Shown: positions 1,707 to 48,797 of the stretch, piece by piece
How positions within the stretch are numbered: the stretch's first letter is position 1
Layout of the letters: each line of letters starts with the position of its first letter
Assembly: GCA_035637655.1 (NCBI GenBank)
Contig: DASPWT010000198.1
Span: 2,840-66,839 of the forward strand
Source: Burkholderiales bacterium
GTDB lineage: Bacteria; Pseudomonadota; Gammaproteobacteria; Burkholderiales; SG8-39
DNA: 64,000 bases
Direction of reading: 5' to 3'
Translations under genes and position numbers: made by a program
Notes under the pieces: model-generated
The model's input: only the letters and a program-made list of their open reading frames with translations
Databases searched by the model: none
Told to the model about the DNA's origin: nothing

Positions 1707-1782
<76 letters not shown>

Positions 1783-4298: not shown

Positions 4299-5324
4299 CT
4301 ACGCCGCCTGCTTCTCCAGGTCCGGACGGTATTTACCCTGCGCCGCAAGCCCGTTCATGCGAGCCCGGTGGTGGAACGCCCGCTGCGCGGCAGCGACGCT
4401 ACCGGGCGCCCCGCGCCAAGCCTTGAGCGCGCAGTTCTGCAGCGCGCGGCTGAAGGAGAAGGTGAGCGGCCAGGGGAGCCCGGGCTTCCTCGCCATTTCG
4501 TTGAGGTGTGCGGTGGCTGCCTCGTCGGCCTGGCCCCCGGAAAGGAACACGATCCCCGGCAGCGCCGCCGGGACGGTCCGCTTGAGGCAACGCACGGTTT
4601 CCTCCGCGACGCGCTCCACGCCGGCTTGTTTCGGACAATCCTTGCCCGAGACCACCATGGACGCTTTCAGAATGGTGTGCTCGAGCGACACGTTGTGGGC
4701 GCGCAGGGCGGCAAACACTGCGCAGAGCGTCGCCTCGGTCGCCTCGTAGCAGCGTTCGATCGTGTGGTCGCCGTCGAGCAGGACCTCGGGCTCGACGATG
4801 GGAACGATCGAGGCTTCCTGGCACAGCGCAGAATAGCGAGCCAAGGCGTGCGCGTTGGCATAGAGGCAAGCGTGGCTGGGAATACCGGGACCGATGGTGA
4901 TGACCGCGCGCCACTTGGCGAAACGAGCGCCGAGCTTGAAATATTCCTCCAGCCGGCCTCGCAGGCCGTCCAGCCCCTCGGTGACCTTTTCTCCTGGTGA
5001 GAGCGCAAGATCGTGTATGCCTTTGTCCACTTTGATGCCGGGGATGATGCCCTTGCCTGCGAGAAATTCCGGAAACGGCTCGTTGGCGGTGAGCGTGCTT
5101 TGCCGGACCGTCTCGTCGAAAAGGATCACGCCGCTCACGAATTCCTCGAGGCCCTTGGTGGTGAAGAGCAGGTCGCGGTAGGCACGGCGGTTCCGCTCGG
5201 TGCTCTCGACGCCGACCGATTTGAAGCGCTTCTCGCAGGTACCGCTCGATTCGTCTGCTGCGAGCAACCCCTTGCCTTTGGCGACCATTGCTGCGGCAGT
5301 CTTGGAAAGCAGGTTTCGGTCCAT
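4299..5324 (-). CDS. fba: Fructose-bisphosphate aldolase, class I
   Basis: 341 aa from [26 protein letters not shown]. It resembles class I (Schiff-base) aldolases along its whole length. AGGAAG lies 6 nt upstream of the ATG at 5324. The track's earlier ATG (5420) adds an implausible N-terminus. Confidence 0.88.
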
Positions 5325-5421
5325 GGAACACTTCCTGTTGCTGGGTGAGAAAGCCGAGGGCCGTGATTTTACCCTGCCTGGCGCCTGCTCGGCCAAACCC
5401 GGGCAACTCGAAAAGCGCAAC

Positions 5422-6267
5422 CTAGCAGGCAGTTTGATGCCGCACGCGACAGCTCGCGAGCACCTCGTCCGGGTCCCGCCGCCACCAATTGCGCGAAGAC
5501 AGGATCTCGACCTCGTGGAAACCGCGGTACCCGGCCCCCTCCATCCACGAGCGCATGAGCGGAAGATCGATCACGCCATCGCCCATCATTCCCCTGTCGG
5601 TGAGCAGGTCCGTGGTGGGCACCAGCCAGTCGCAGATATGGAACGCAAGCAGGCGCTTGTCGCCCGCGCGCTCGATCTGAGTCTTGAGCAGGGGGTCCCA
5701 CCAGACGTGGTAAGCATCCACCACGACACCGAGGGCCCCGCTTGCATTGCGGTCCAGCTGGTCGCACAGATCGAGCGCCTGCGCCAGCGTGTTCACGCAG
5801 GCCCGGTCGGCGCAGTACATCGGGTGCAGCGGCTCGATCGCAAGCGGGACGCCTGCTGAGCGCGCGTGATCGAACACTTCGCCGATGCCGTCCCTCACCA
5901 TCTGTCGCGCGCCCGCCAAGTCCTTGGAACCGGGGGGAAGCCCGCCGACCACGAGCACCAGGCACCTTGCCTCGAGCGTCGCAGCGTCGTCGATCGCGCG
6001 CAGGTTGTCGTCGATCGCGGCCTGACGCGCCCTGCGGTCCGCGCCCGGGAACATCCCTCCGCGGCAAAGCCCCGTCACCGCGAGCCCGTTGTCGCGGATC
6101 GCCTTGGCCGCTTCCTTCGCGCCCATCTCGGCGAGTTTGTCGCGCCAAGGCGAGATTCCCCGGATGCGGTGGCGCGCGCAACCCTCGATCATCTGGCGCA
6201 GGTTCCACTTTTCCCGCAGCGTGGCGGTATTGAGCGAAAGCAGTTCGGGATCGGGCGGATTGCTCAT
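5422..6267 (-). CDS. Sugar phosphate isomerase/epimerase (xylose-isomerase-like TIM barrel) family protein
   Basis: 281-aa ORF whose pattern (LAIEPLHP..., VVVDAYHVWWD, HICD) is typical of AP-endonuclease-2/xylose-isomerase-like TIM barrels. There is a 4-nt ATGA overlap with the upstream DUF993 gene. Confidence 0.8.
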   Translation of the reverse strand: MSNPPDPELLSLNTATLREKWNLRQMIEGCARHRIRGISPWRDKLAEMGAKEAAKAIRDNGLAVTGLCRGGMFPGADRRARQAAIDDNLRAIDDAATLEARCLVLVVGGLPPGSKDLAGARQMVRDGIGEVFDHARSAGVPLAIEPLHPMYCADRACVNTLAQALDLCDQLDRNASGALGVVVDAYHVWWDPLLKTQIERAGDKRLLAFHICDWLVPTTDLLTDRGMMGDGVIDLPLMRSWMEGAGYRGFHEVEILSSRNWWRRDPDEVLASCRVRHQTAC

Positions 6268-7451
6268 CCACCGATGCCGTTTACAGCGAGAAAATGCCTC
6301 ATCCTGGATGCCGCGAGCTCGGGATCGCGCAGCAACCCGGCTGCGTCGGCCAGCCGGAAAGTTTCCGCCAGATCGGCGACCGAGCGGGCCGACTGCTGGC
6401 CGCCGACCATGACGAAATGTTCCTGGTGGCCGTTCAGCCAGGCGAGGAACACGAGTCCCGTCTTGTAGAAGCGCGTCGGCGCGGCAAAAATCTGACGCGC
6501 GAGCGGCAGCGTCGGCGCGAGGATGTCGTGAAAACCGCGCGCGTCTCCCGAAGCCAGGCGTCCCAGCGCTGCAGAGGCGGCCGGGGCAATCGCGTCGAAA
6601 ATGCCGAGCAGCGCGTCGGAGCGGCCTTCCCGGTCGCCTTCGATCAGCTCCGGGTAGTTGAAATCGTCCCCGGTATACATGCGCACCCCCTCGGGGAGAC
6701 GCCTGCGCATGTCGATTTCCTTTTGTCGATCGAGGAGCGAGATCTTGATGCCTTCTACTTTGGCGCGGTTTGCTTCGATCACGGCCAGTGCCACGTTCAT
6801 CGCCCTGCCGTGATTCTCCTCGCCCCAGTAGCCGGCGAGTTGCGGGTCGAACATCTCGCCCAGCCAGTGAATGATCACGGGACGCTTCACCTGGGAGAGG
6901 ATGCGCGAGTAGACCGCCTGATAGTCGTCGGGCGAGCGGGCGCAGGCGGCTAGCGCGCGGCTCGCCATGAGCACGATCCGTCCGCCGAGCCTTTCGATCG
7001 CTTCACACTGCTCTTCGTACGCGGCGACGACCTCATCGAGTGTCGCTTCGCTAGAGGGCGCGAGTTGATCGGTACCCGCGCCGCTGAAGAGCACCGCGCC
7101 TTCGATGTCTCCTGAGGCCTCGATCGAGCGGCGGATCAGCTCAAGGGAACTCTTCCAGTCAAGCCCCATTCCGCGTTGTGCCGTGTCCATCGCTTCGGCC
7201 ACGCCGAGACCCAGTGACCACAGGTAGCGCCGGTAGGCAGTAGTCGCATCCCAGTCGACTGCGGCATCGAGCCATGGATTCCCTCGGGCGAGAGGATCGG
7301 CGACCACGTGGGCCGCGGCGAGCGCGATGCGGTTGAACGCTTTCCTTCCGGTTGCGCCGAAATCGCGCGGCGCGCTCAGTCGGAATTCCTCGAGCTTCCC
7401 GGCTCCGGATGGAAGCTTGATGCGCACCGCCACCTTTTCAGGCGCATTCAT
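6264..7451 (-). CDS. DUF993 / dihydrodipicolinate-synthase-like family protein, function unknown
   Basis: 395-aa ORF. I recognise the sequence as the DUF993 family that accompanies Gfo/Idh/MocA and TIM-barrel isomerase genes. This is recognition by eye with no HMM run. Confidence 0.7.
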   Translation of the reverse strand: MNAPEKVAVRIKLPSGAGKLEEFRLSAPRDFGATGRKAFNRIALAAAHVVADPLARGNPWLDAAVDWDATTAYRRYLWSLGLGVAEAMDTAQRGMGLDWKSSLELIRRSIEASGDIEGAVLFSGAGTDQLAPSSEATLDEVVAAYEEQCEAIERLGGRIVLMASRALAACARSPDDYQAVYSRILSQVKRPVIIHWLGEMFDPQLAGYWGEENHGRAMNVALAVIEANRAKVEGIKISLLDRQKEIDMRRRLPEGVRMYTGDDFNYPELIEGDREGRSDALLGIFDAIAPAASAALGRLASGDARGFHDILAPTLPLARQIFAAPTRFYKTGLVFLAWLNGHQEHFVMVGGQQSARSVADLAETFRLADAAGLLRDPELAASRMRHFLAVNGIGG

Positions 7452-7457
7452 GCCGCT

Positions 7458-8609
7458 CTACGCTTTCAGTCTGGGAACGTCGACCCAGCGCCGCGATCGC
7501 CACGATTTCATGGCGCAATCGACCAGTTGCAGGCCCTTCGCACCCTCCAGGAGGTTCCATCTGAACGGCGCGTCTTCGCATACATGGCGGATGAAGAGTT
7601 CCCATTCGGCCTTGAACGCATTGTCGTAAGGCTTGTCGTCCGGAACCTCCTTCCAGTCCGCGCCAAAATCGTGGGTTTTACGCACGTCCGGGTTCCATAT
7701 CGGCCGGGGCGTTTCGGCGAGCGATTGGGTAAAGCAGCGCGTCAGCCCCGCCACGGCCGAACCACGCGTGCCGTCAACCTGGAATGTCACCAGATCGTCG
7801 CGGCGCACGCGCACGCACCAGGAACTGTTGAAATGCGCAACGACGTCGCCCGCGAGCCGGAAAGTCGCGTACGCGGCATCGTCTGCGGTCGCCCTGTACT
7901 TGCCGCCGCTTTCGTCCCAGCGCGCCGCGATGTGCCGCGCCCCGAGGCAGGAAACGCTCTTCACTTCTCCGAACAGGTTGTCGAGCACGTAGCGCCAGTG
8001 GCACAGCATGTCGAGGATGATTCCGCCGCCGTCCTTTCTCCGGTAATTCCAGGAGGGCCGCTGCGCGGGCTGCTCATCGCCCTCGAATACCCAGTAGCCG
8101 AACTCGCCCCGGACCGAGAGGATCCTGCCGAAGAAACCGGCGTCACGCAGCGCCTTGATCTTCAAGAGCCCCGGCAGCCACAGCTTGTCCTGCACCACTC
8201 CGTGCCGGACGCCTGCTTGTTTCGCCGCGCGACAAAGTCCGAGCGCCTGCGCGAGGGAAGTGGCCACAGGTTTCTCGCAGTAGATGTGTTTCCTCGCGGC
8301 GATTGCCCTCTTGAGCACGGCGGGCCGGAGCTTTGTCGAAGCGGCGTCGAAAAAAACCGCATCGTCGGGGTTCCTGAGCGCCTCATCCAGGTCGGTGGTC
8401 CAGCGCTCGACGCCGTGCTCGGCGGCGAGCTTCTTCAGCTTTTCGGCGTTGCGCCCGACCAGGATCGGGTCGGGGATCACCCGCGTGCCGTCGGCAAGCC
8501 GCACCCCGCCCTCCTTGCGGATGGCCATGACGGAGCGCGCCAGGTGCTGGTTCGTGCCCATGCGGCCCGTCACTCCATTCATGATGACGCCGAGTCTTTG
8601 CTCAGCCAT
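7458..8609 (-). CDS. Gfo/Idh/MocA family NAD(P)-dependent oxidoreductase
   Basis: 383-aa ORF with an N-terminal Rossmann segment (LGVIMNGVTGRMG), an EKP motif (IYCEKPVA) and the C-terminal alpha/beta domain typical of the family. Confidence 0.85.
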   Translation of the reverse strand: MAEQRLGVIMNGVTGRMGTNQHLARSVMAIRKEGGVRLADGTRVIPDPILVGRNAEKLKKLAAEHGVERWTTDLDEALRNPDDAVFFDAASTKLRPAVLKRAIAARKHIYCEKPVATSLAQALGLCRAAKQAGVRHGVVQDKLWLPGLLKIKALRDAGFFGRILSVRGEFGYWVFEGDEQPAQRPSWNYRRKDGGGIILDMLCHWRYVLDNLFGEVKSVSCLGARHIAARWDESGGKYRATADDAAYATFRLAGDVVAHFNSSWCVRVRRDDLVTFQVDGTRGSAVAGLTRCFTQSLAETPRPIWNPDVRKTHDFGADWKEVPDDKPYDNAFKAEWELFIRHVCEDAPFRWNLLEGAKGLQLVDCAMKSWRSRRWVDVPRLKA

Positions 8610-8626: not shown

Positions 8627-10066
8627 TTATCCCTTCCGGTGCTCCCCGACTCGAACGATCTTCATCGTGTTGGTTCCGCCGGCCTTGCCGATCGGCTCGC
8701 CGATGGTGAGCACGATGAGGTCCCCCTTCTGCACCACGCCGTTCCTCACCAAGACGTTTTCGGCCTCCTCCAGCAGCTCCTCGCGGTCGTTACCGACGTA
8801 CTTCACCATCAGGGGATAGGTGTCCCGAAACAGCGCGCAACGATAGCGGGTCGAGGTCTGCGAAGTGAGGGCGTAGATCGGAACGCCGCAGTTGATGCGC
8901 GACATCCACAGCGCGGTCGACCCCGACTCGGTGAGCGCAGCGATCGCTTTCACCTTGAGATGATAAGCGGTGAAAAGCGCGGCCATGGCGATCGACTGGT
9001 CCACGCGGGTAAAAACGCGATCGAGGAAGTCGCGGTCGAGCGTCACCTCGGCCGAGTCTTCCGCGACTGCGCAGATGCGGCTCATGGAGGCGATGGTCTC
9101 GACGGGGTACTTGCCGCTTGCGGTTTCCGCGGACAACATTACCGCGTCGGTCCCATCCAGCACGGCATTGGCGACGTCCGACACTTCGGCGCGCGTGGGT
9201 ACCGGGCTCGAAATCATCGACTCCATCATCTGCGTGGCGGTGATAGTGAGCTTGTTCTGCTCGCGCGCATGTCGAATCATTCGCTTTTGCAGCGCCGGGA
9301 CCGAGGCATCGCCGACCTCCACCGCCAGATCCCCGCGCGCCACCATGATGCCCTCGCAGGCCGACATGATATCGGTGAGCGCATTCGGCTCGACGGCTTC
9401 GGCGCGCTCGATCTTGGCGATGAGGAAAGCCTCGCCGCCCGCGGCGCGCAAAAGCTTCCTTGCCATCTCCATGTCGGCGCTCGACTTGGGGAAGGAAACG
9501 GCGAGGAAATCCACCTTGATTTTCGCCGCGGTGCGGATGTCCTCCATGTCCTTCGGCGGAAGCGCGGGAGCGGTGAGGCCGCCTCCGAGGCGGTTGATGC
9601 CCTTGTTGTTGGAGAGCACTCCTCCATGACGGACGCGGCAGTGCACCTCGTTGCGCACGACCTTTTCGACTTCGAACTCGATCTTGCCGTCGTCGAGAAG
9701 CAGCACGTCTCCGGGCCGCACGTCGCGCGGCAGCTCCTTGTAGTCCAGGCCGACGCGGCCGTCGACCCCAAGCTCGCAGTCGGCATCGAGCACGAAGGCA
9801 TCCCCTGGATTCAGAGCGACCTTGCCGTCCTTGAACTTGCCGATCCGGATCTTGGGACCCTGCAGGTCGCCCATGATGCCGACCGTACGCCCGGTTTTGC
9901 GGCAAGCCTCGCGCACCAACTCGGCACGGCGCTCGTGGTCGCCGGCAGTGCCGTGCGAGAAATTCAAGCGCACGACGTCCACTCCGGCGAGGAACATCCG
10001 CTCGAGCGTTTGAGGATCGCTCGACGCGGGGCCGAGTGTGGCGACGATTTTGGTGCTTCTGCTCAT
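8627..10066 (-). CDS. pyk: Pyruvate kinase
   Basis: 479-aa ORF: MSRSTKIVATLGPAS...VRLNFSHG...GDLQGPKIR...MVARGDL. A GGAGGG Shine-Dalgarno precedes the ATG. Confidence 0.95.
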   Translation of the reverse strand: MSRSTKIVATLGPASSDPQTLERMFLAGVDVVRLNFSHGTAGDHERRAELVREACRKTGRTVGIMGDLQGPKIRIGKFKDGKVALNPGDAFVLDADCELGVDGRVGLDYKELPRDVRPGDVLLLDDGKIEFEVEKVVRNEVHCRVRHGGVLSNNKGINRLGGGLTAPALPPKDMEDIRTAAKIKVDFLAVSFPKSSADMEMARKLLRAAGGEAFLIAKIERAEAVEPNALTDIMSACEGIMVARGDLAVEVGDASVPALQKRMIRHAREQNKLTITATQMMESMISSPVPTRAEVSDVANAVLDGTDAVMLSAETASGKYPVETIASMSRICAVAEDSAEVTLDRDFLDRVFTRVDQSIAMAALFTAYHLKVKAIAALTESGSTALWMSRINCGVPIYALTSQTSTRYRCALFRDTYPLMVKYVGNDREELLEEAENVLVRNGVVQKGDLIVLTIGEPIGKAGGTNTMKIVRVGEHRKG

Positions 10067-10362
10067 TGACCCTCCGGGAAAACCGTTCTACTTTACCAGA
10101 TGCGTATGAGGCTACTTTCTTCCCCGGAAGGCGTTGCGCATGGAACATCCCGGCAGCGGACGCGGGCCGCGCCGCCTTTGGGCTGCGCCCCCTGGAGCGG
10201 CCCAAAAGCCGCTCAATGCACGGAACCCGCGCAAGGAGCGGCTCCGGCGTGACCTGGCCGAGGGACAGGCCTCCAAACCCGGTTTTTCGCAGCGAGCGGC
10301 CGGTTTCGGCTATATTTCCGGTCTGCGCCAGCGGCTGAGCCATACTTACAAGGGAGGACCCC

Positions 10363-11487
10363 GTGCTTGCCACGCAGATTCGCCAGAAGGATGGCATCTT
10401 CTACTTCGGCAGCGTCCGCGCTCCCGAGCTGCTCGCCAAGGTTCGTTTTATCAGCCGTTTTTACGGCGAAGGCGAGGAGATCGCCCCGGCGCGCGTCTCC
10501 CAGGAAGACGAGATCGCCCAGTTCATCGCTAAAATCGAGCGCAACGACCGCGCCTTCCAGAGAACCTTGTCCCGGGCCAAGGTGCGCCAGCTCAAGAATT
10601 TCTATGAGACGGCGATCACCCAGCCGCCGATCCCCGGAACGGTATTGCTGTTCACCTCCGAGAAGCTGCGCTTCCAGCCGGTCGCGGGCGCGGAGGGCGC
10701 GGGCCATCTGTCCGAGCCGCAGGCGAAATTCCTCATCATCGACGGCCAGCACCGGCTCGCCGCGCTGCGCTTCTATCTGGACGAACACCCGGACGATGCC
10801 AAGACCATCAATGTGCCGTGCGTGATTTTCGACGGCAGGAGCGAGGACTTTGCCACCGAGATGTTCGTAATCATCAATTCCACACCGACGCGCATCAACA
10901 AGAGCCACCTGATCGACTTGTACGAGCGCGTGTCTTGGGCCGAACCCCACCGCAAGTTCGCCTCGCGCGTGGTCGGCAGCCTCTACAGCGAGGGCGACAG
11001 TCCGCTGCGTTATCGCATCAATCGCCTCGGCGGGCGCAGCGCGCAGGACAAGTGGATCCTCCAGGCGGAACTGTTCAACGAGCTGCACCGCTGGGTCAAC
11101 CGCGACTGGCGCAAGATCCAGCTGGCCGGGGGGAGCCGTACCCAGGTGCCGAACTATTACGGCATGGTGCGCGACTTTTTCAAGGCGGCCGAGCGCGTCT
11201 GGGGCGAGGCCTGGGGCCACGACAACTACATGGTCACTAGGCCAGTGACTCTTAAGGCGATGCTGCGGGTGTGCGCCGACCTCGCACGCGAGGACGCCGA
11301 GCCTGCCGAGGGTCGCGTCAAGCGCTGGGAAGAGCGGCTTGCCTCTTGGCGCGATCAGGTGAAGGCGTTCAAGTCGGAGGGCTTCTACGAGCGCTTCGCC
11401 GCAAAGGGCGAAGTCGAGCGTGTGAGCCGCGTGCACCGCGAGCTTGCGCGCGCCGCCGGAATCGAGGCTCGCGGGGCCAAATTCTAG
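10363..11487 (+). CDS. DGQHR-domain protein (DndB-like, ParB/Srx-type fold); orphan
   Basis: 374 aa. The literal DGQHR motif is at nt 10741-10755 ([11 protein letters not shown]) and the upstream FQR motif at nt 10555-10563. The start is GTG, preceded by GGGAGGA. The antisense 407-aa ORF has no recognisable motifs. Confidence 0.8.
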
Positions 11488-12662
11488 GCCTTGGCGCGCT
11501 GCTCCAGCACCTCGATCGCGGGCAGTTTCTTGCCTTCAAGGAACTCCAGGAAAGCCCCGCCGCCGGTCGAGATGTAGGAAATCCTGTCGGCGACTCCGTA
11601 TTTCGCGATGGCGGCGAGCGTCTCGCCGCCGCCGGCGAGCGAATACGCACCCGATCCGGCAATCGCTTGCGCGATGGCCTTCGTTCCCTGCCCGAATTGA
11701 TCGAACTCGTACACGCCGAGCGGACCGTTCCAGACGATGGTACCCGCCTCGGAAAGCCGCTTTGCGAATGCCGCAGCGGTACGCGGACCGATATCGAGGA
11801 TCATGTCGTCGTCGCCGATTTCGGCCGCAGGCGTGATCACGGCCTTGGCCGCTGCCGAGACTTCTTTCGCGCAGACGACATCCACCGGCAGCGGCACTTC
11901 GCTGCCTTTGTCGCGCAGGCTCGCCGCGATTTTCTTCGCCTCGCCGATGAGGTCCGGTTCGGCCAGAGACTTGCCTACCTTCATGCCAGCCGCGAGCATG
12001 AAAGTATTGGCAATCGCTCCGCCCGGGATCAGCCGGTCGACCTTCTCGGCGAGAGCGCCGAGAACCGCAAGCTTGGTCGAGACTTTCGCTCCGGCGACGA
12101 TCGCCACTAAGGGACGAGCCGGTCGATCGAGCGCCTTGGACAGCGCCTCGATCTCCGCCGCCATCAGCGGCCCGGCGCACGCCACCGGGGCGTACTTCGC
12201 GATGGCGTGAGTGGTCGCTTCGGCGCGGTGCGCAGTGCCGAAGGCGTCGTTGACGTAGACGTCGCATAGCGCAGCCATCTTTTTTGCCAGGACATCGTCG
12301 TCCTTCTTCTCGCCTTTGTTGAAGCGGCAGTTCTCAAGCAATACCCCCCGGCCTGGCTCCACGGTGACCCCCTCCAACCAGTCTCGCTTAAGGGGGACTT
12401 CCTGACCCAGCAGCTGCGATAGGTGCTTTGCAACCGGCGCGAGCGACTCTTTCTCATCGAATCGGCCTTCTGCCGGCCGGCCGAAGTGCGACACGAGCAT
12501 CAGCCGCGCGCGCTGCGCAAGCGCTTCGCGGATCCCCGGTACCGCCGCGCGGATGCGCGTGTCGTCCGAGATCCTACCGTCCTGCATGGGAACGTTGAAG
12601 TCGACGCGGACCAGCACACGCTTGCCGCGCAGATCCACGTCCGACATCCGGAGAACGTGCAT
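11484..12662 (-). CDS. pgk: Phosphoglycerate kinase
   Basis: 392-aa ORF: RVDFNVP...ISDDTRIRA..., FGTAHRA, STGGGA. Confidence 0.95.
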
Positions 12663-12665
12663 GAG

Positions 12666-13679
12666 CTACTTTGCGTTCATCAACGCAACCGTTGCGTCCA
12701 GCATCCGATTGCTGAAGCCCCACTCGTTGTCATACCAGCTCGAGACTTTCACCAGCGTGCCGTTCGACACCCGGGTAAGGGTGGCATCGAACACGCTGCT
12801 CGCGGCGCTGTGGTTGAAATCGGAGGACACGAGCAGCTCGGTGTTGTACTCGAGAATACCCTTCAGATCCGTTTGCGATGCCTGCCTTGCCGCGTCGTTG
12901 ACTTCCTCCACCGTCGTCGGCCTCTTCGCCACGAAGGTCAGGTCCACGATCGACACATTGATAGTCGGCACGCGGAACGCGAACCCGTCGAGCTTACCGT
13001 TGAGGTGCGGCAATACCAAACCGATCGCCGCCGCGGCGCCGGAGCTCGCCGGGATCATGTTGTGTGTCGCCGACCGCGCGCGGCGCAGGTCCTTGTGGTA
13101 GACGTCGGTCAGCACCTGGTCGTTGGTGTAGGCGTGGACCGTAGTCATGAGGCCGGAGACTACGCCGATGCGATCGTCAACCGCCTTAACCAGCGGGGCG
13201 AGACAATTGGTAGTGCACGAGCCGTTCGAAATCACCGTATCGGAGGCCTTCAGCGTCTTGTCGTTGACGCCGATGACTACGGTGCGATCCACATCCTTCT
13301 CGCCCGGCGCCGAGAGAACCACTTTCTTCGCGCCCGCAGCGAGATGCGCCGAGGCCTTCTCCTTGCTCGTAAAGAGCCCCGTGCACTCGAGAACCACGTC
13401 GACCTTGAGGTCCCTCCACGGCAACTCGGCCGGATTGCGCTTCGCGCAGACCTGGATGCGATCGCCGTTCACGATCATCGATTCGCCTTCCACGGCGATC
13501 GTTCCGGGGAATTTTCCGTGCGTGGTGTCGTAGCGCGTCAGATGCGCGTTGGTCTGCGCATTGCCGAGGTCGTTGATCGCGACAAACTGGAGGTCGTGTT
13601 TTTTCGCGCCTTCATAGTGGGCTCGCAGGATGTTGCGGCCGATGCGGCCGTAGCCGTTGATGGCGACTCGAATGGTCAT
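12666..13679 (-). CDS. gap: Glyceraldehyde-3-phosphate dehydrogenase
   Basis: 337-aa ORF: INGYGRIGR, the catalytic [12 protein letters not shown], and WYDNEWGF. Confidence 0.95.
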
Positions 13680-13702: not shown

Positions 13703-15685
13703 TTACTTCAATACGCTTTTCACGGCCTTCACCACATTGTCCACGGTGAAGCCGAAGTATTCGAATAGTTTCGCGCCGGGGGCCGATTCGCCGTAGCGGT
13801 CGATCCCGACCACCGCACCCTCAAGTCCGACATACTTGCGCCAATACTCACTGACACCGGCTTCGACGGCGACCTTGGGCAAAGTCGGGATCAGCACCAC
13901 GTCCCTGTACATCGGCGGCTGGCGGTCGAACGCCGAGGTGCAGGGGATCGACACGACCCGAACCGAAACGCCCTCCTCGGCAAGTTTTTGCTTCGCGCCT
14001 AGAGCCAGCTGCACTTCCGATCCGGTGGCAAGGATGACAGCCTTGGGTTCCTGCGCGTCCGCGAGAACGTAGCCGCCGCGGCGGATCGCCGAGACCGTAT
14101 GAGCATCGCGTTTTTGAAACGGTACGTTCTGCCGCGTGAACAATAGCGAGGTCGGCCCATCCTTTCGCTCGATCGCGGCCATCCAGGCCACCGCCGCTTC
14201 GACGGAATCGCAAGGTCGCCAGACGTCCATGCCCGGGATCAGGCGCAGGGCTGCGGCGTGCTCGATCGACTGGTGCGTGGGGCCGTCCTCGCCCAGGCCG
14301 ATCGAGTCGTGGGTAAAGACGAAGATCGAGCGGATCCTCATCAGCGCCGCCATGCGCAGCGCGTTTCTGGAGTAGTCCGAGAAGGTGAGGAAGGTGCCGC
14401 CGTAAGGAATGATTCCGCCGTGCAGCGCCAAGCCGTTCATGACCGCGCTCATGCCGAATTCGCGCACGCCGTAATAGATGTAGTTGCCGCCCCCCTCCCG
14501 CCCGATCGGCTTTGACCCCGACCACAGCGTGAGGTTGGAGCCGGTCAGATCGGCCGAGCCACCGACCCACTCGGGCAGCACCGGGGCGAGGCCTTCTATC
14601 GCGTTCTGCGAGGCCTTGCGAGTAGCGATGGATTCTGTCCTGGCAATGATTTTTTCGAGCAGCACCTGGCAGTGGGTACTCCAGTTCGCCGGCAGTTCGC
14701 CGGCGACGCGGCGGCGGAACTCGCGCGCAAGTTCCGGTTGTGCTTTCTCGTACGCGGCGAACTTGTCATTCCAGGCCCGCTCGAGCGCCGCACCGCGCTT
14801 TTTCGCGTCCCAGCCGTCGTAAATGTGCTGAGGGACCTCGAACGGCGGGTAGCGCCAGCCGATCGCCGCGCGCGTCGCCGCGACCTCTTCGGCCCCAAGC
14901 GCTTCCCCGTGCGCCTTTGCCGTCCCGGCGCGCTTGGGGGCCCCCTTGCCGATCACGGTCTTGCAGCAGATGAAGCTGGGTTTGTCCGCTACCGCCTTCG
15001 CGGCTCGGATCGCGCGGTCAACCGATTCGACGTCGTGGCCGTCGACGTTCGAGATTACGTGCCAGCCATAGGCCTCGAAGCGCTTGGGCGTGTCGTCTCG
15101 GAACCAGTCCTTGACCTCGCCGTCAATGGAGATCTTGTTGTCATCGTAAAGGGCGATCAACTTTCCCAGGGCGAGGGCTCCGGCGAGCGAGCAGGCCTCG
15201 TGCGAAATTCCCTCCATCAGGCAGCCGTCACCGACCGACACGTAGGTATGGTGGTCGACGATGTCGAAGTCCGGGCGGTTGAATTCGGCGGCGAGTATGC
15301 GTTCGGCGATCGCCATGCCGACCGAGTTCGCCAAGCCCTGCCCCAAGGGACCCGTGGTCGTCTCAACGCCGGGAGTGACGCCGAGTTCGGGATGACCTGG
15401 CGTCTTCGAATGCAGCTGGCGGAAGCGTTTGAGCTCGTCCATCGGCAGGTCGTAGCCGGTGAGATGCAGGAGCGCGTACAGCAGCATCGAGCCGTGGCCG
15501 TTGGAGAGCACGAAACGATCGCGGTCTGGCCACTTCGGGTTTGCCGGGTTGTGCCGCAGGTGCCGCCCCCACAGCGCGAGCGCGATTTCGGCCATTCCCA
15601 TGGGCATTCCAGGGTGACCGGAGTTCGCCACCTGCACGGCGTCCATGGCCAACGCACGGATCGCGTTGGTCAGGTCCTGGCTCAT
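13703..15685 (-). CDS. tkt: Transketolase
   Basis: 660-aa ORF: [34 protein letters not shown]. Confidence 0.95.
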
Positions 15686-35182: not shown

Positions 35183-36160
35183 ATGGCTTTCAACAAGTTG
35201 CTGCGCGAAATCGCCGGACTTGTCTTGGCTGTTTGCGTCGCGGCTGACGTGCTCGCTCAGGCCGCCTATCCTGCGAAGCCGGTGAAAATAATCGTGCCCT
35301 ACTCCGCCGGAGGCCCGGCGGACATCTACGCGCGCTTTATCGGCGACCGTCTGCAAAAGACTCTCGGACAAGCTTTTGTAATCGAGAACCGGCCGGGCGC
35401 CGGTGCGATGATCGGCACCGACGCGGTGGCGAAATCTGCCTCCGACGGGTACACGCTGCTCATGATGTCGAATACACACACTGTAAACGAATCACTTTTC
35501 ACGAAGAAATCCTACAGCCTGATGCGGGACCTCACGCCGATCTCGCCGATCAACTATTCCGACCTCCTTCTTGTGGTTCACGCTTCGGTACCGGCGAACA
35601 ATCTGAAGGAGCTCATCGCGCTCGGCAAATCGAAGCCGGGCGCTCTCAATTACGCTTCCTCCGGACCGGGCACGCCCTATCACATGGCGGGCGAGTTGTT
35701 CAAGGCGATGGCCGGAGTCGACGTGGTACACGTGCCCCACAAGGGAAGCGCTGAAGCACGCACCAGTGTCCTCGCAGGCGACGTGCAGATGATGTTCGAC
35801 GCAATTACCACGATGGCGCCGCTCGCGCAGGCGGGCAAGGTTCGCGCCATCGCCACCTCCGGAAAGACGCGTTCCTCGATCACGCCGGGAGTGCCGACCC
35901 TGGACGAAGCCGGCCTGCCCGGTTACGACGCCGTCATCTGGCTGGGGATGATGGCCCCGACCGCGACCCCGAAACCGATCGTCGACATGCTGAATTCCGA
36001 GATTCAGAGAATCGCCGGCTTGCCAGACGTGAAGGAAATCTGGGCCAAGCAGGGCGCAGTTCCGATGCGCATGACCCCGGCAGAATTCGGCAAATTCATG
36101 GAGCAGGATATCCAGAAGTGGGCGAAGGTCGTGAAATTCTCGGGGGCAAAGGTCGATTAG
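35183..36160 (+). CDS. Bug-family (TctC-like) tripartite tricarboxylate transporter substrate-binding protein
   Basis: 325 aa with a signal peptide and then YPAKPVKIIVPYSAGGPADIYARF...VENRPGAGA, the hallmark Bug N-terminus. A GGAGGA Shine-Dalgarno is present. Confidence 0.85.
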   Translation: MAFNKLLREIAGLVLAVCVAADVLAQAAYPAKPVKIIVPYSAGGPADIYARFIGDRLQKTLGQAFVIENRPGAGAMIGTDAVAKSASDGYTLLMMSNTHTVNESLFTKKSYSLMRDLTPISPINYSDLLLVVHASVPANNLKELIALGKSKPGALNYASSGPGTPYHMAGELFKAMAGVDVVHVPHKGSAEARTSVLAGDVQMMFDAITTMAPLAQAGKVRAIATSGKTRSSITPGVPTLDEAGLPGYDAVIWLGMMAPTATPKPIVDMLNSEIQRIAGLPDVKEIWAKQGAVPMRMTPAEFGKFMEQDIQKWAKVVKFSGAKVD

Positions 36161-46772: not shown

Positions 46773-48692
<1,920 letters not shown>

Positions 48693-48693
48693 T

Positions 48694-48788
48694 CAACGCT
48701 TCCCTGCGGCGGCATTATCCGCATCAGGTTCGAAGGGTTTGCTCTCACCCGGCCAGGCAAGTTTGCTTTGGTCAGGACCCCTACGTTG
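48694..48788 (-). promoter_or_regulatory. TPP (THI-box) riboswitch controlling thiC
   Basis: The minus strand reads CAACG-TAGGGGTCC...GGGTGAGAGCAAACCCTTCGAACCTGATGCGGATAATGCCGCCGCAGGGAAG-CGTTG. It matches the conserved TPP aptamer cores (C)UGAGA, ACCCUU.GAACCUGAU..GGAUAAUGCC..GCAGGGA, with a P1 of CAACG/CGTTG. Confidence 0.85.
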
Positions 48789-48797
48789 CTCGAAAGG

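Follow-up and report, generated by a model that had tools for sequence, protein, structure and literature searches.

In Agrobacterium tumefaciens, the oxidative hexuronate pathway comprises Udh, Gli, Gci, KdgD and KGSADH, KdgD being a DHDPS-family protein, while the E. coli glucarate/galactarate pathway employs GudD/GarD, GarL, GarR and GarK, its final part running through tartronate semialdehyde and glycerate to glycerate kinase. Carboxylates are the substrates of enolase-superfamily enzymes. In a further group of systems, YcjS/YcjR, LgdA/LgdB and IolG with IolE/IolI, the ketone made by an NAD-dependent Gfo dehydrogenase is used by a metal-dependent TIM barrel in an epimerisation, isomerisation or elimination. 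Glycerate-pathway operons carry a C3 keto acid or aldehyde via glycerate into lower glycolysis. In Pseudomonas such an operon has the order gcl-hyi-glxR-ttuD-ttuE, in which ttuE encodes pyruvate kinase (PMC8601165), and the tartrate-utilisation cluster of Agrobacterium vitis is a further example with a pyruvate kinase gene (PMC2063504). Hydroxypyruvate, tartronate semialdehyde and glyceraldehyde all feed into glycerate as the hub (PMC2063504). The non-phosphorylative branch of the Entner-Doudoroff pathway combines an NAL/DHDPS-family KDG aldolase with a class II glycerate kinase, producing pyruvate and an unphosphorylated C3 aldehyde which, once oxidised to glycerate, is phosphorylated, such that no sugar kinase is needed (PMC2063504).

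We have analysed a triad of genes coding for a Gfo/Idh/MocA-family oxidoreductase (Gfo), a DUF993 protein and a xylose-isomerase-like TIM-barrel protein (TIM), which very probably constitutes a conserved, functional and co-acting catabolic core. The larger module to which it belongs is regarded as inducible and catabolic because a TetR gene and a transporter usually adjoin the triad, an enolase-like gene often does and glycerate kinase recurs. Like the hexuronate and glucarate pathways, the module would combine a dehydrogenase, an enolase-superfamily cycloisomerase or dehydratase and an enzyme acting on a keto-deoxy acid, and the carboxylate substrates of those pathways fit its TTT transporters and enolase-like partner. 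KdgD, the last enzyme of the Agrobacterium pathway, is of the DHDPS family, as is the fold of DUF993, and the glycerate kinase of the E. coli branch is matched by that recurring beside DUF993 here. However, no enzyme is orthologous, with Gfo in place of the SDR-type Udh, the enolase-like protein is without a PDB or NCBIfam relative, DUF993 matches neither the Pfam DHDPS nor the KdgD models, the xylose-isomerase-like barrel is obligatory, no aldehyde dehydrogenase is conserved with the triad and the window (the whole 64-kb stretch of DNA analysed) holds the three core genes only.

The glycerate-pathway operons are similar in that genes for pyruvate kinase, an oxidoreductase and the AP_endonuc_2-type isomerase Hyi stand together in one operon. 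The window cluster does not correspond to a gcl-hyi-glxR-ttuD-pyk operon, as gcl, glxR and ttuD are absent and TIM scores below the Hyi model, while the role of carbon-carbon enzyme would fall to a DHDPS-fold protein of the Schiff-base type rather than a thiamine-diphosphate carboligase; the likeness is therefore in operon logic only. The aldolase of the non-phosphorylative Entner-Doudoroff branch shares its DHDPS/NAL fold with DUF993, which is nevertheless a separate family with altered motifs and ∼12–16% identity to DHDPS-family structures. The Gfo/Idh/MocA plus AP_endonuc_2 pair is common to YcjS/YcjR, LgdA/LgdB and IolG-IolE/IolI; in contrast, those systems are without a DHDPS-type third enzyme, their substrates are neutral sugars or cyclitols and the window proteins are only remotely similar to theirs.

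Gene layout and promoter-like elements in the window

The window originates from a Burkholderiales bacterium (contig DASPWT010000198.1). As described in the earlier note, the three reading frames lie on the minus strand between pyk, coding for a pyruvate kinase of 479 aa (8627..10066; Pfam PK and PK_C; NCBIfam pyruvate kinase, 647 bits), and fba, coding for a class I fructose-bisphosphate aldolase of 341 aa as read from the ATG at 5324 (4299..5324, minus strand; Pfam Glycolytic, E 8e-134; NCBIfam FrucBisAld_I, 504 bits). In the direction of transcription, Gfo (383 aa, 7458..8609) is followed by DUF993 (395 aa, 6264..7451) and TIM (281 aa, 5422..6267). The reported junctions of 17, 6, −4 and 97 nt were all re-read from the sequence: 17 nt containing GAGGA separate the pyk stop from the Gfo ATG, 6 nt lie between the Gfo stop and the DUF993 ATG, DUF993 stop and TIM start share ATGA in a 4-nt overlap, and 97 nt extend from the TIM stop (5422–5424) to the fba ATG, which is preceded by an AGGAAG ribosome-binding site. 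The same pyk-Gfo-DUF993-TIM-fba-purC layout is found in related metagenome and MAG contigs with DUF993 identities of 82–98%. A cognate transporter, regulator, enolase-like gene and glycerate kinase are absent from the window, which counts against the explanation preferred below.

Upstream of pyk, a conserved block, CATCTGGTAAAGTAG (10088..10102, minus strand), contains TGn and TAAAGT, resembling an extended −10 element, the hexamer ending 23 nt ahead of the pyk ATG. The block is invariant in the window and in loci L001, L004 and L005 amid diverging intergenic flanks, and we infer that it is a promoter-like element of pyk, the gene with which the transcription unit holding the triad probably begins. 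A second block, GGTAAAATCACG (5362..5373, minus strand), lies in the TIM-fba spacer with a putative −10 hexamer, TAAAAT, at 5366–5371 and is invariant in the window, L001, L002, L004, L005 and L006; it likely represents the −10 element of a promoter belonging to fba itself. In L007, where the triad does not immediately precede fba, GCAGGTAAAATTGC is located upstream of this gene. Thus, of the co-transcription initially proposed for the triad with both neighbours, that with pyk is likely given the 17-nt gap, whereas that with fba is not required because a conserved −10-like element precedes fba, even in L007. The designation as a glycolytic operon holds for the gene cluster but not for a single operon, since a convergent plus-strand DGQHR/DndB-like gene (10363–11487) interrupts pgk and pyk. 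purC, purE and sua5 come after fba, and adjacency in this cluster is consequently not proof of shared function.

The three proteins and selection on their genes

The Gfo protein possesses the N-terminal Rossmann and C-terminal alpha/beta domains of the GFO_IDH_MocA family (PF01408, PF02894, PF22725), with Pfam scores far over threshold, and the family motifs EKP, as CEKP, and D-x3-H, as LDMLCHW, are present in its translation. The nearest PDB entry is 3oqb (E 3e-180), a structural-genomics 'oxidoreductase'. Characterised relatives are all remote, the best named NCBIfam models being IolG (69 bits versus a cut-off of 355) and levoglucosan dehydrogenase (64 versus 650), both below the equivalog cut-offs. 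TIM matches PF01261 (AP_endonuc_2; E 5e-38, 132 bits versus a cut-off of 31) and is by sequence a putative metal-dependent isomerase-type barrel. Its PDB relatives 3qc0 ('sugar isomerase'), 3ju2 (SMc04130, uncharacterized) and 7vpf ('xylose isomerase') were detected with E values of 1e-105 to 6e-80, and none has a defined function. The best named model for TIM is IolO, 5-keto-L-gluconate epimerase (38 bits versus a cut-off of 300), and the best named PDB relative is IolI; no match to the NCBIfam Hyi or IolE models or to Pfam UxuA was obtained. Myo-inositol catabolism was rejected on the IolG and IolO scores, the missing IolE match and the absence of other iol gene types among recurrent neighbours. 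The levoglucosan/3-keto-glycoside pathway (LgdA/B) was also rejected, on the 64-bit score and because the triad has one TIM barrel, with DUF993 in the place of the second.

DUF993 matches PF06187 (E 4e-183, 609 bits versus a cut-off of 24), residues 11–393 spanning positions 1–382 of the 382-position profile, and its PDB relative is 4dnh (SMc04132, 'uncharacterized'; E 8e-157). No PF00701 (DHDPS) match was obtained even at E ≤ 10, nor any NCBIfam match, including the DapA and KdgD equivalog models. PDB DHDPS sequences were matched only via the DUF993 family profile (E 0.005–0.012), and DHDPS-like neighbour proteins gave no significant match in a profile-profile comparison. An AF2 model (pLDDT 81) superimposes on 4dnh with a TM of 0.92, and Foldseek returned 217 matches at E ≤ 0.001, of which those listed at ranks 2–50 are all DHDPS entries (E ∼1e-10, probability 1.00, target TM ∼0.8). 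Profile alignment to P. aeruginosa DHDPS places GIK(236)ISLL on GIKEATG and TGDDF on SGDDA; Lys236, falling in predicted strand 232–238, and D262-D263 are invariant in 69 sequences. This alignment and the fold match bear out the suggestion that DUF993 is DapA-like, and indicate that it is a divergent protein of the DHDPS/NAL class I aldolase fold in which Lys236 is the conserved candidate Schiff-base lysine. At the DHDPS GxTGE/GTTGE site DUF993 has MDTAQR, in which Thr (T90) is kept and the remainder altered, and strand beta-5 reads IIHWLG, with His195-Trp196 in place of the DHDPS Tyr-Asn (Tyr133 in E. coli DHDPS). Like the profile-profile result, these altered carboxylate-binding and Tyr motifs count against the explanation that we prefer.

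That the triad has no assigned function, as the earlier note stated, was confirmed: no NCBIfam equivalog exists for any member, 3oqb, 4dnh and 3ju2 are labelled merely as oxidoreductase or uncharacterized, and none of the papers searched mentions DUF993, PF06187 or these PDB entries or gives the triad a function. In S. meliloti, SMc04132 and its neighbour SMc04133 ('putative oxidoreductase') are both detected as proteins and co-vary within one proteome module (PMC12542648). The triad is genuine, and purifying selection on it is strong and comparable to that on its glycolytic neighbours: against two relatives at dS ∼1, dN/dS is 0.09–0.11 for Gfo, 0.10–0.14 for DUF993 and 0.05–0.09 for TIM, with ∼0.055 for pyk and fba in the same comparison.

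The module across genomes

Neighbourhoods were surveyed in 80 genomes of Alpha-, Beta- and Gammaproteobacteria and Verrucomicrobiota, and neighbours were counted in the 61 genome loci that had sufficient flanking sequence. The order Gfo-DUF993-TIM is the same in nearly all of the 80 genomes, and the wide recurrence proposed for the triad is upheld, DUF993 being adjoined by Gfo in 57 and by TIM in 53 of the 61 loci. A transporter is located near the triad in 53 loci (TTT in 27, NMT1/SsuA-type ABC in 29), a TetR gene in 46 and an enolase-like gene in 39. The enolase-like neighbour, for which no relative was found in PDB or NCBIfam, retains KxK, D, E, D and K invariantly in 27 sequences. No kinase or phosphatase is present in the conserved module. 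The usual cargo of NMT1/SsuA-type binding proteins, pyrimidine precursors or sulfonates, is a point against our preferred explanation. The TetR gene of Devosia-type loci is the first of a divergently transcribed operon that also codes for a CUT1 sugar ABC transporter and two additional Gfo proteins, an arrangement suggestive of a neutral sugar and thus a point against the preferred explanation. In one locus an aldose 1-epimerase gene follows TIM and TctC.

Glycerate kinase genes, of two unrelated classes, occur in 13 DUF993-holding loci. They recur near a DUF993 and TIM pair, mostly beside a more distant DUF993 paralogue, and directly follow a complete Gfo-DUF993-TIM triad in two loci, a Paracoccus yeei plasmid and metagenome locus L175. 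The paralogue group (53–59% identical) beside which most of these kinases lie belongs to another type of cluster, one containing genes for CoA-transferase, acyl-CoA dehydrogenase, GMC oxidoreductase and aldehyde dehydrogenase, which again weighs against the preferred explanation. A Rhodococcus paralogue is adjoined by a LacI regulator and a sugar ABC transporter. One deep DUF993 branch has the operon UxaC-Gfo-DUF993-DUF6807 with UxaE divergent and upstream; it is only beside this branch that UxaC/UxaE occur, and the hexuronate isomerase pathway (UxaC, UxuB/UxaB, UxuA/UxaA, KdgK, KdgA) does not account for the module. The UxaC/UxaE and mutarotase links are each confined to a single lineage, a further point against the preferred explanation.

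In almost all genomes the triad lies outside glycolytic clusters. Among the relatives, locus L086 has the order gap-pgk-pyk-TetR-TctCBA-triad followed by a convergent fba-like gene, and L007 has TetR-ABC-enolase-triad, ∼3 kb and fba-purC. Since the pyk/fba site of both is occupied by the complete module together with its regulator, the position in the window is inherited from an insertion and says little on function. The earlier argument that this placement hints at function is therefore weak, the module being TetR-regulated (46/61) and transporter-linked (53/61) elsewhere.

Proposed route and competing explanations

The explanation that we prefer, and consider to have about an even chance of being correct as a whole, is that the triad forms the core of a TetR-repressed, transporter-coupled catabolic module. 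Gfo would oxidise or reduce a hydroxyl or carbonyl group with NAD(P) as cofactor, the metal-dependent TIM barrel would enolise beside that carbonyl as an epimerase, isomerase or beta-eliminating dehydratase, and Lys236 of DUF993 would form a Schiff base with the resulting keto acid, leading to cleavage or to dehydration and decarboxylation. The output would be pyruvate, a C3 compound (aldehyde or keto acid) or both, the C3 compound passing via glycerate into lower glycolysis ahead of pyruvate kinase. Oxidation, isomerisation or dehydration, and cleavage to pyruvate or a C3 pool stays the most plausible chemistry, as initially envisaged, although gene placement lends it little support. The substrate would be a small compound resembling a sugar; an acidic one (uronate, aldonate or aldarate) is the leading but tentative choice, somewhat short of an even chance, and output via pyruvate and/or glycerate is likewise possible rather than probable. 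In the window lineage, an uncultured soil Burkholderiales, the module occupies an ancestral pyk/fba insertion site and has lost the TetR gene, transporter and accessory enolase-superfamily enzyme, pyk-Gfo-DUF993-TIM being most likely read from the pyk promoter while fba keeps its own.

In a neutral glycoside or cyclitol route, a 3-keto (or 2-keto) sugar or inosose would be generated by Gfo; TIM would act beside the ketone as an epimerase or by elimination, and the product would be opened or cleaved by DUF993. Such a route has precedents in E. coli YcjQRS, levoglucosan LgdA/B1/B2/C, 3-keto-glycoside lyases and the iol pathway. Gfo with AP_endonuc_2 is the classic pairing of such systems, the best named relatives of Gfo (IolG, levoglucosan dehydrogenase) and TIM (IolO, IolI) come from them, and the Devosia-type CUT1/Gfo operons and the LacI regulator and sugar ABC transporter in Rhodococcus are consistent with this reading. 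We nevertheless judge it unlikely, as scores fall far under the equivalog cut-offs (69 vs 355, 64 vs 650, 38 vs 300), we know of no keto-sugar route using a DHDPS-type enzyme, carboxylates are indicated by both of the dominant partners (TTT transporters and the enolase-superfamily enzyme), and iolC, iolD, iolB and iolJ are absent from the neighbourhoods. An organosulfonate or pyrimidine/ribose-related substrate (sulfo-sugar, DHPS, sulfolactate or hydroxymethylpyrimidine salvage) would agree with the NMT1/THI5-like ABC binding protein, whose nearest relatives are the ThiY, SsuA and TauA families, with the TauE/SafE exporter gene directly ahead of Gfo in Devosia, with a PfkB kinase nearby in Bradyrhizobium and with one source labelling a DUF993 protein 'potentially related to ribose or hydroxymethylpyrimidine metabolism'. 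TauE, however, is confined to Devosia loci, PfkB is limited to a single genus, where it lies on the other strand, desulfonating enzyme families and thiamine genes are missing from the neighbourhoods and the enolase-superfamily partner needs a carboxylate, making such a substrate decidedly improbable.

Integration of the triad with glycolysis, by co-regulation with pyk and fba and conversion of a sugar or sugar phosphate to triose phosphate, is favoured by the retention of the pyk-fba position across relatives at dS ∼1, by the 17-nt gap after pyk and by the absence of a same-strand terminator-like site inside the triad. It is improbable in view of the triad having its own TetR gene and transporter elsewhere, mostly outside glycolytic clusters, the occurrence of the module together with its regulator at this very site of the chromosome in L086 and L007, the separate conserved promoter-like element of fba and the presence of purC, purE and sua5 in the cluster. 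Nothing points to the sugar-phosphate substrate originally suggested, the conserved module having no kinase, no phosphatase and no feature hinting at a phosphate-binding enzyme. The absence from the window of the TetR, transporter and enolase-like genes present in its nearest relatives might imply that the triad is a functionless, decaying remnant, left after loss of transporter and regulator. This is scarcely credible, as every reading frame is intact, the conserved residues are all kept and the arrangement is retained in several divergent relatives; dN/dS of 0.05–0.14 at dS ∼1, on par with the housekeeping neighbours, largely refutes it.

Within the preferred explanation of a catabolic core, a bolder version, which we think doubtful, is that Gfo-DUF993-TIM constitutes a new kind of self-sufficient three-step route, in which oxidation is followed by elimination and cleavage and no phosphorylation takes place. 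A new functional class of Schiff-base lyase would then be represented by DUF993, an abundant soil acid sugar would be converted directly to pyruvate and a glycerate precursor, and the route would have escaped substrate-specific repression and come under the pyk promoter. If true, it would be an effectively constitutive extension of lower glycolysis in this Burkholderiales lineage.

The locus and its transcription

On the minus strand of the window, tkt (13703-15685), gap (12666-13679) and pgk (11484-12662) are followed by pyk (8627-10066), the Gfo/Idh/MocA oxidoreductase gene (Gfo, 7458-8609), the DUF993 gene (6264-7451), the xylose-isomerase-like TIM barrel gene (TIM, 5422-6267) and a class I fba (ATG at 5324, end at 4299), downstream of which lie purC and then purE and sua5, also on the minus strand. 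Direct reading of the sequence gives a 17 nt pyk/Gfo gap containing a GAGGA ribosome-binding site, a 6 nt Gfo/DUF993 gap, an ATGA overlap between DUF993 and TIM and a 97 nt TIM/fba gap, and the position, order and junctions assigned to the triad in an earlier note are exact. The glycolytic operon described there is, conversely, a cluster and not a single operon, as a convergent DGQHR-domain, DndB-like gene (10363-11487, +), overlapping the pgk stop by 4 nt, splits pgk from pyk. The DGQHR protein gives weak DndB and DpdB matches (PADLOC DpdB E 8e-15) and its gene is kept at the same spot in the related loci L001 and L004-L006, while no further dnd or dpd genes are found near this solitary gene. 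The cluster runs on into purine and tRNA-modification genes and adjacency here is thus no proof of a shared pathway. Elsewhere in the window, tRNA-Ala(CGC) is located at 1707-1782 (-) and a TPP riboswitch (60 bits) at 48683-48792 (-), directly upstream of a 629-aa ORF (46773-48662, -) which, from its position and size, we take to be a putative thiC.

Sequence comparison indicates that the triad genes are real and functional. Pfam scores of the three proteins are far over threshold, and the order pyk-Gfo-DUF993-TIM-fba-purC is retained in related contigs with DUF993 identities of 82-98%. Comparison of the window with two related contigs, at dS of ~1, gave dN/dS values of 0.09-0.11 for Gfo, 0.10-0.14 for DUF993 and 0.05-0.09 for TIM, with values of about 0.055 for pyk and fba and about 0.10 for pgk. 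Combined, the Pfam scores, kept gene order and low dN/dS exclude a decaying remnant. The three proteins match exactly the MAG proteins HYU70240-HYU70242 from an uncultured 'Burkholderiales bacterium', in which the names are generic only.

Co-transcription of the triad with both pyk and fba, as previously proposed, is likely for pyk but need not extend to fba. Comparative alignment reveals a conserved promoter-like block, CATCTGGTAAAGTAG (10088-10102, -), ending 23 nt ahead of the pyk ATG, and a second, GGTAAAATCACG (5362-5373, -), in the TIM-fba spacer. In L007, the closest genome match (71-78% identity), a similar GCAGGTAAAAT is present ahead of fba, although the triad is not immediately upstream there. 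The blocks before fba and pyk both contain GGTAAA(A/G)T and resemble -10 elements from a promoter type particular to the lineage; a scan inside the cluster for standard sigma-70 consensus promoters and terminators returned nothing useful and did not call the conserved blocks. These sequence features lead us to infer one transcription unit made up of pyk-Gfo-DUF993-TIM, with possible read-through, and another that starts at a separate promoter before fba and continues through purC.

Placement between pyk and fba, which had been taken as a functional clue, loses much of its force when related loci are compared. In L086, a Casimicrobiaceae MAG, the order is gap-pgk-pyk-TetR-TctCBA-Gfo-DUF993-TIM, followed by a convergent gene (12039-12980, -) in a position mirroring that of fba in the window; its 313 aa product matches class I aldolase weakly (E 5e-7). 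In L007, a second TIM barrel, TetR, ABC and enolase-like genes precede Gfo-DUF993-TIM, followed by endonuclease V and dinB and then fba-purC. These layouts indicate that a full regulated module sits in the pyk/fba interval in this part of the Burkholderiales. The window lineage carries a stripped version of that module, and the location of the triad is inherited and tells little about function. When TetR, the enolase-like gene, glycerate kinase and components of ABC or tripartite tricarboxylate transporters (TTT) were sought in the window by tblastn, the only match was a generic Bug/TctC-family binding protein gene (35183-36160, +), 26% identical to triad-linked TctC proteins and probably unrelated to the triad.

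A recurrent module in other genomes

A scan of one genome per species, using a query alignment of seq­uences from 7 members, detected 80 loci with DUF993 identities of 62-72% in Alpha-, Beta- and Gammaproteobacteria and in Candidatus Udaeobacter. Almost everywhere, DUF993 is flanked in the same order by orthologues of the window Gfo (59-74% identity) and TIM (54-78%), Gfo adjoining DUF993 in 57 and TIM in 53 of the 61 loci with enough flank. The DUF993 family comprises >8000 sequences at E <= 1e-10, forming 1981 clusters at 50% identity, from soil, rhizosphere and marine bacteria including Bradyrhizobium, Sinorhizobium, Devosia and Burkholderiales. It has been a Pfam entry for years, with a crystal structure since 2012. 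No NCBIfam equivalog is reached by any of the three triad proteins, and their closest structures, 3oqb, 4dnh (SMc04132), 3ju2 (SMc04130), 3qc0 and 7vpf, carry no label more specific than 'oxidoreductase', 'uncharacterized protein', 'sugar isomerase' or 'xylose isomerase'. In one source a DUF993 protein is named 'potentially related to ribose or hydroxymethylpyrimidine metabolism', wording that was evidently taken from its context. Full-text literature searches gave no mention of DUF993, PF06187 or PDB entries 4DNH, 3OQB, 3JU2, 3QC0 and 7VPF, and nothing relevant on glyceryl-CoA or DUF6807. A search on Sinorhizobium meliloti locus tags gave, as the only relevant match, a proteome table in which SMc04132 and SMc04133 are both detected, in one co-varying module (PMC12542648). 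The view that the triad is a recurrent unit lacking a defined substrate is therefore upheld by its 80 loci, near-constant order and absence of any equivalog or functional label.

Clustering of neighbouring ORFs, followed by Pfam and NCBIfam annotation, defined the usual operon as TetR (TetR_C_29), a transporter, sometimes a second, IolO/psicose-epimerase-like TIM barrel (14/61 loci), an enolase-like gene, Gfo, DUF993 and TIM. A transporter of any kind is found in 53 of the 61 loci, a TctC/B/A TTT in 27 and an ABC transporter whose binding protein is NMT1/SsuA-like in 29, with TetR in 46 and the enolase-like gene in 39. The latter, directly upstream of Gfo in L007 (7216-8643) and 38 more loci (for example L023, L030 and L082), encodes an enolase-superfamily protein of ~475 aa with a weak Pfam MR_MLE_C match; searches for a PDB relative or NCBIfam equivalog found neither. 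Its KxK motif, Asp/Glu/Asp metal ligands and beta-6 Lys are invariant in 27 sequences, so that an active site of muconate-lactonizing type is intact. Enolase-superfamily enzymes with such a site act on carboxylates. Minimal operons consisting of a transporter plus the triad also occur (for example L017, L060 and L086) and the three core enzymes thus appear to be a sufficient unit.

DUF993 fold and proposed chemistry

The description of DUF993 as DapA-like is borne out by structural comparison and HMM-to-PDB alignment, on which the claim of homology to the class I aldolase DHDPS rests. An AlphaFold2 model built from a 69-sequence alignment (pLDDT 81, pTM 0.82) was used for Foldseek, a model from a shallow alignment (16 sequences, >=79% identity; pLDDT 57) having been discarded. 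Foldseek gave 217 matches at E <= 0.001, the best being 4dnh (TM 0.92), and among the matches listed ranks 2-50 are all DHDPS (E ~1e-10, probability 1.00, target TM ~0.8, 12-16% identity). Searching with the family profile picks up DHDPS sequences from Pseudomonas (E 0.005-0.012) in a collinear alignment, placing GIK(236)ISLL opposite GIKEATG, the site of the DHDPS Schiff-base lysine, TGDDF opposite SGDDA and AMDTAQR opposite VGTTGES. The Pfam DHDPS model does not match the window DUF993, and hhalign of DUF993 with the DHDPS-like family found among its neighbours gave no significant score (E 0.09). Lys236, Thr90 and Asp262-Asp263 are invariant in the DUF993 alignment, while the carboxylate-binding motif and catalytic Tyr of DHDPS are not kept. 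We accordingly class DUF993 as a divergent enzyme of the DHDPS/NAL fold that lies outside every characterised subfamily and very probably forms a Schiff base with a keto compound.

It can be firmly inferred that the triad serves catabolism, its three enzymes working one after another on a single small molecule. Plausibly, Gfo would make or remove a carbonyl, beside which the metal-dependent TIM barrel would enolise, acting as an epimerase, isomerase or beta-eliminating dehydratase. The mannonate dehydratase UxuA belongs to the same superfamily as this TIM barrel. Lys236 of DUF993 could then form an imine with the resulting keto acid, followed by cleavage, or by dehydration and decarboxylation, plausibly yielding pyruvate and/or hydroxypyruvate, tartronate semialdehyde or glyceraldehyde; the last three would be converted in cells via glycerate to 2- or 3-phosphoglycerate. 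Near analogies are the Agrobacterium oxidative uronate route, in which an MLE-type cycloisomerase of the enolase superfamily is combined with KdgD, a member of the DHDPS family, and the E. coli glucarate route, with glycerate kinase as its end step. The triad is a long-standing orphan module and not a new kind of system: its parts come from known superfamilies and its logic resembles known non-phosphorylative acid-sugar routes, but its lyase family and its enolase-superfamily partner are both uncharacterised. Documented operons couple a pyruvate kinase to glycerate formation through an oxidoreductase and an isomerase of AP_endonuc_2 type, as in gcl-hyi-glxR-ttuD-ttuE (PMC8601165) and in the tartrate cluster and glycerate hub (PMC2063504). 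Given such operons, retention of the triad beside pyk is at least compatible with the proposed output. The earlier suggestion that the triad feeds triose-phosphate or pyruvate pools stands in part, recurrence and fold being sustained and the argument from placement not.

Substrate and significance

We favour an acid sugar, for example a uronate, aldonate or aldarate, as substrate, based on the carboxylate-type partners, the association with glycerate kinase and hints from UxaC and mutarotase genes. A glycerate kinase gene is found in 13 loci with DUF993, two unrelated kinase classes being represented (MOFRL/TtuD and GarK types); in two cases, a Paracoccus yeei plasmid and the metagenome locus L175, it comes immediately after an entire Gfo-DUF993-TIM triad. 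Most of the 13 loci, though, concern a DUF993+TIM paralogue pair, 53-59% identical, found in L087 (S. meliloti pSymA), L088 (Rhodococcus plasmid), L093 (Rhizobium plasmid) and L114-L167 (metagenome). This pair lies with CoA-transferase, acyl-CoA dehydrogenase, enoyl-CoA hydratase, SDR, GMC oxidoreductase, ETF, glycerate kinase, aldehyde dehydrogenase and two aldo/keto reductase genes, accompanied by a LacI or LysR regulator and a sugar ABC transporter, and is a second conserved, uncharacterised cluster, distinct from the triad module. A deep DUF993 branch (40% identity; L099 6049-13688 and L100) has the operon UxaC-Gfo-DUF993-DUF6807-Gfo with UxaE divergent upstream, the function-unassigned DUF6807 filling the TIM-barrel position, and a Pseudoroseomonas plasmid carries TetR-Gfo-DUF993-TIM-TctC followed by aldose 1-epimerase (mutarotase). 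The UxaC/UxaE and mutarotase links each occur in a single lineage and serve only as hints.

Contrary hints also exist. At Devosia-type loci TetR is the first gene of a divergent operon that also encodes a CUT1 sugar ABC transporter and two further Gfo proteins, and the nearest relatives of the NMT1/SsuA-like binding protein bind pyrimidine precursors or sulfonates; no close liganded structure was found for either the NMT1-type or the TctC-type binding protein. One Devosia lineage has a TauE/SafE exporter gene, divergent from TctCBA-TetR, directly before Gfo-DUF993-TIM (L089 7830-8570, L090). TauE/SafE was not found beside the triad in loci other than Devosia, and this sulfite-exporter lead was downgraded as Devosia-restricted.

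In the window, the glycolytic neighbourhood is a historical insertion site and therefore should not be taken to argue for an additional step in glycolysis. DUF993, long an orphan family, is firmly tied to two partner enzymes, dedicated transporters and a repressor, and its function is thus a well-posed problem. Each of the three core proteins has a close relative of known structure, culturable hosts exist, and the binding proteins and TetR repressor offer handles for ligand fishing. Solving the module would probably improve genome annotation and fill a gap in carbon-cycling models with a route for an acid sugar or for a related compound of plant or microbial origin.
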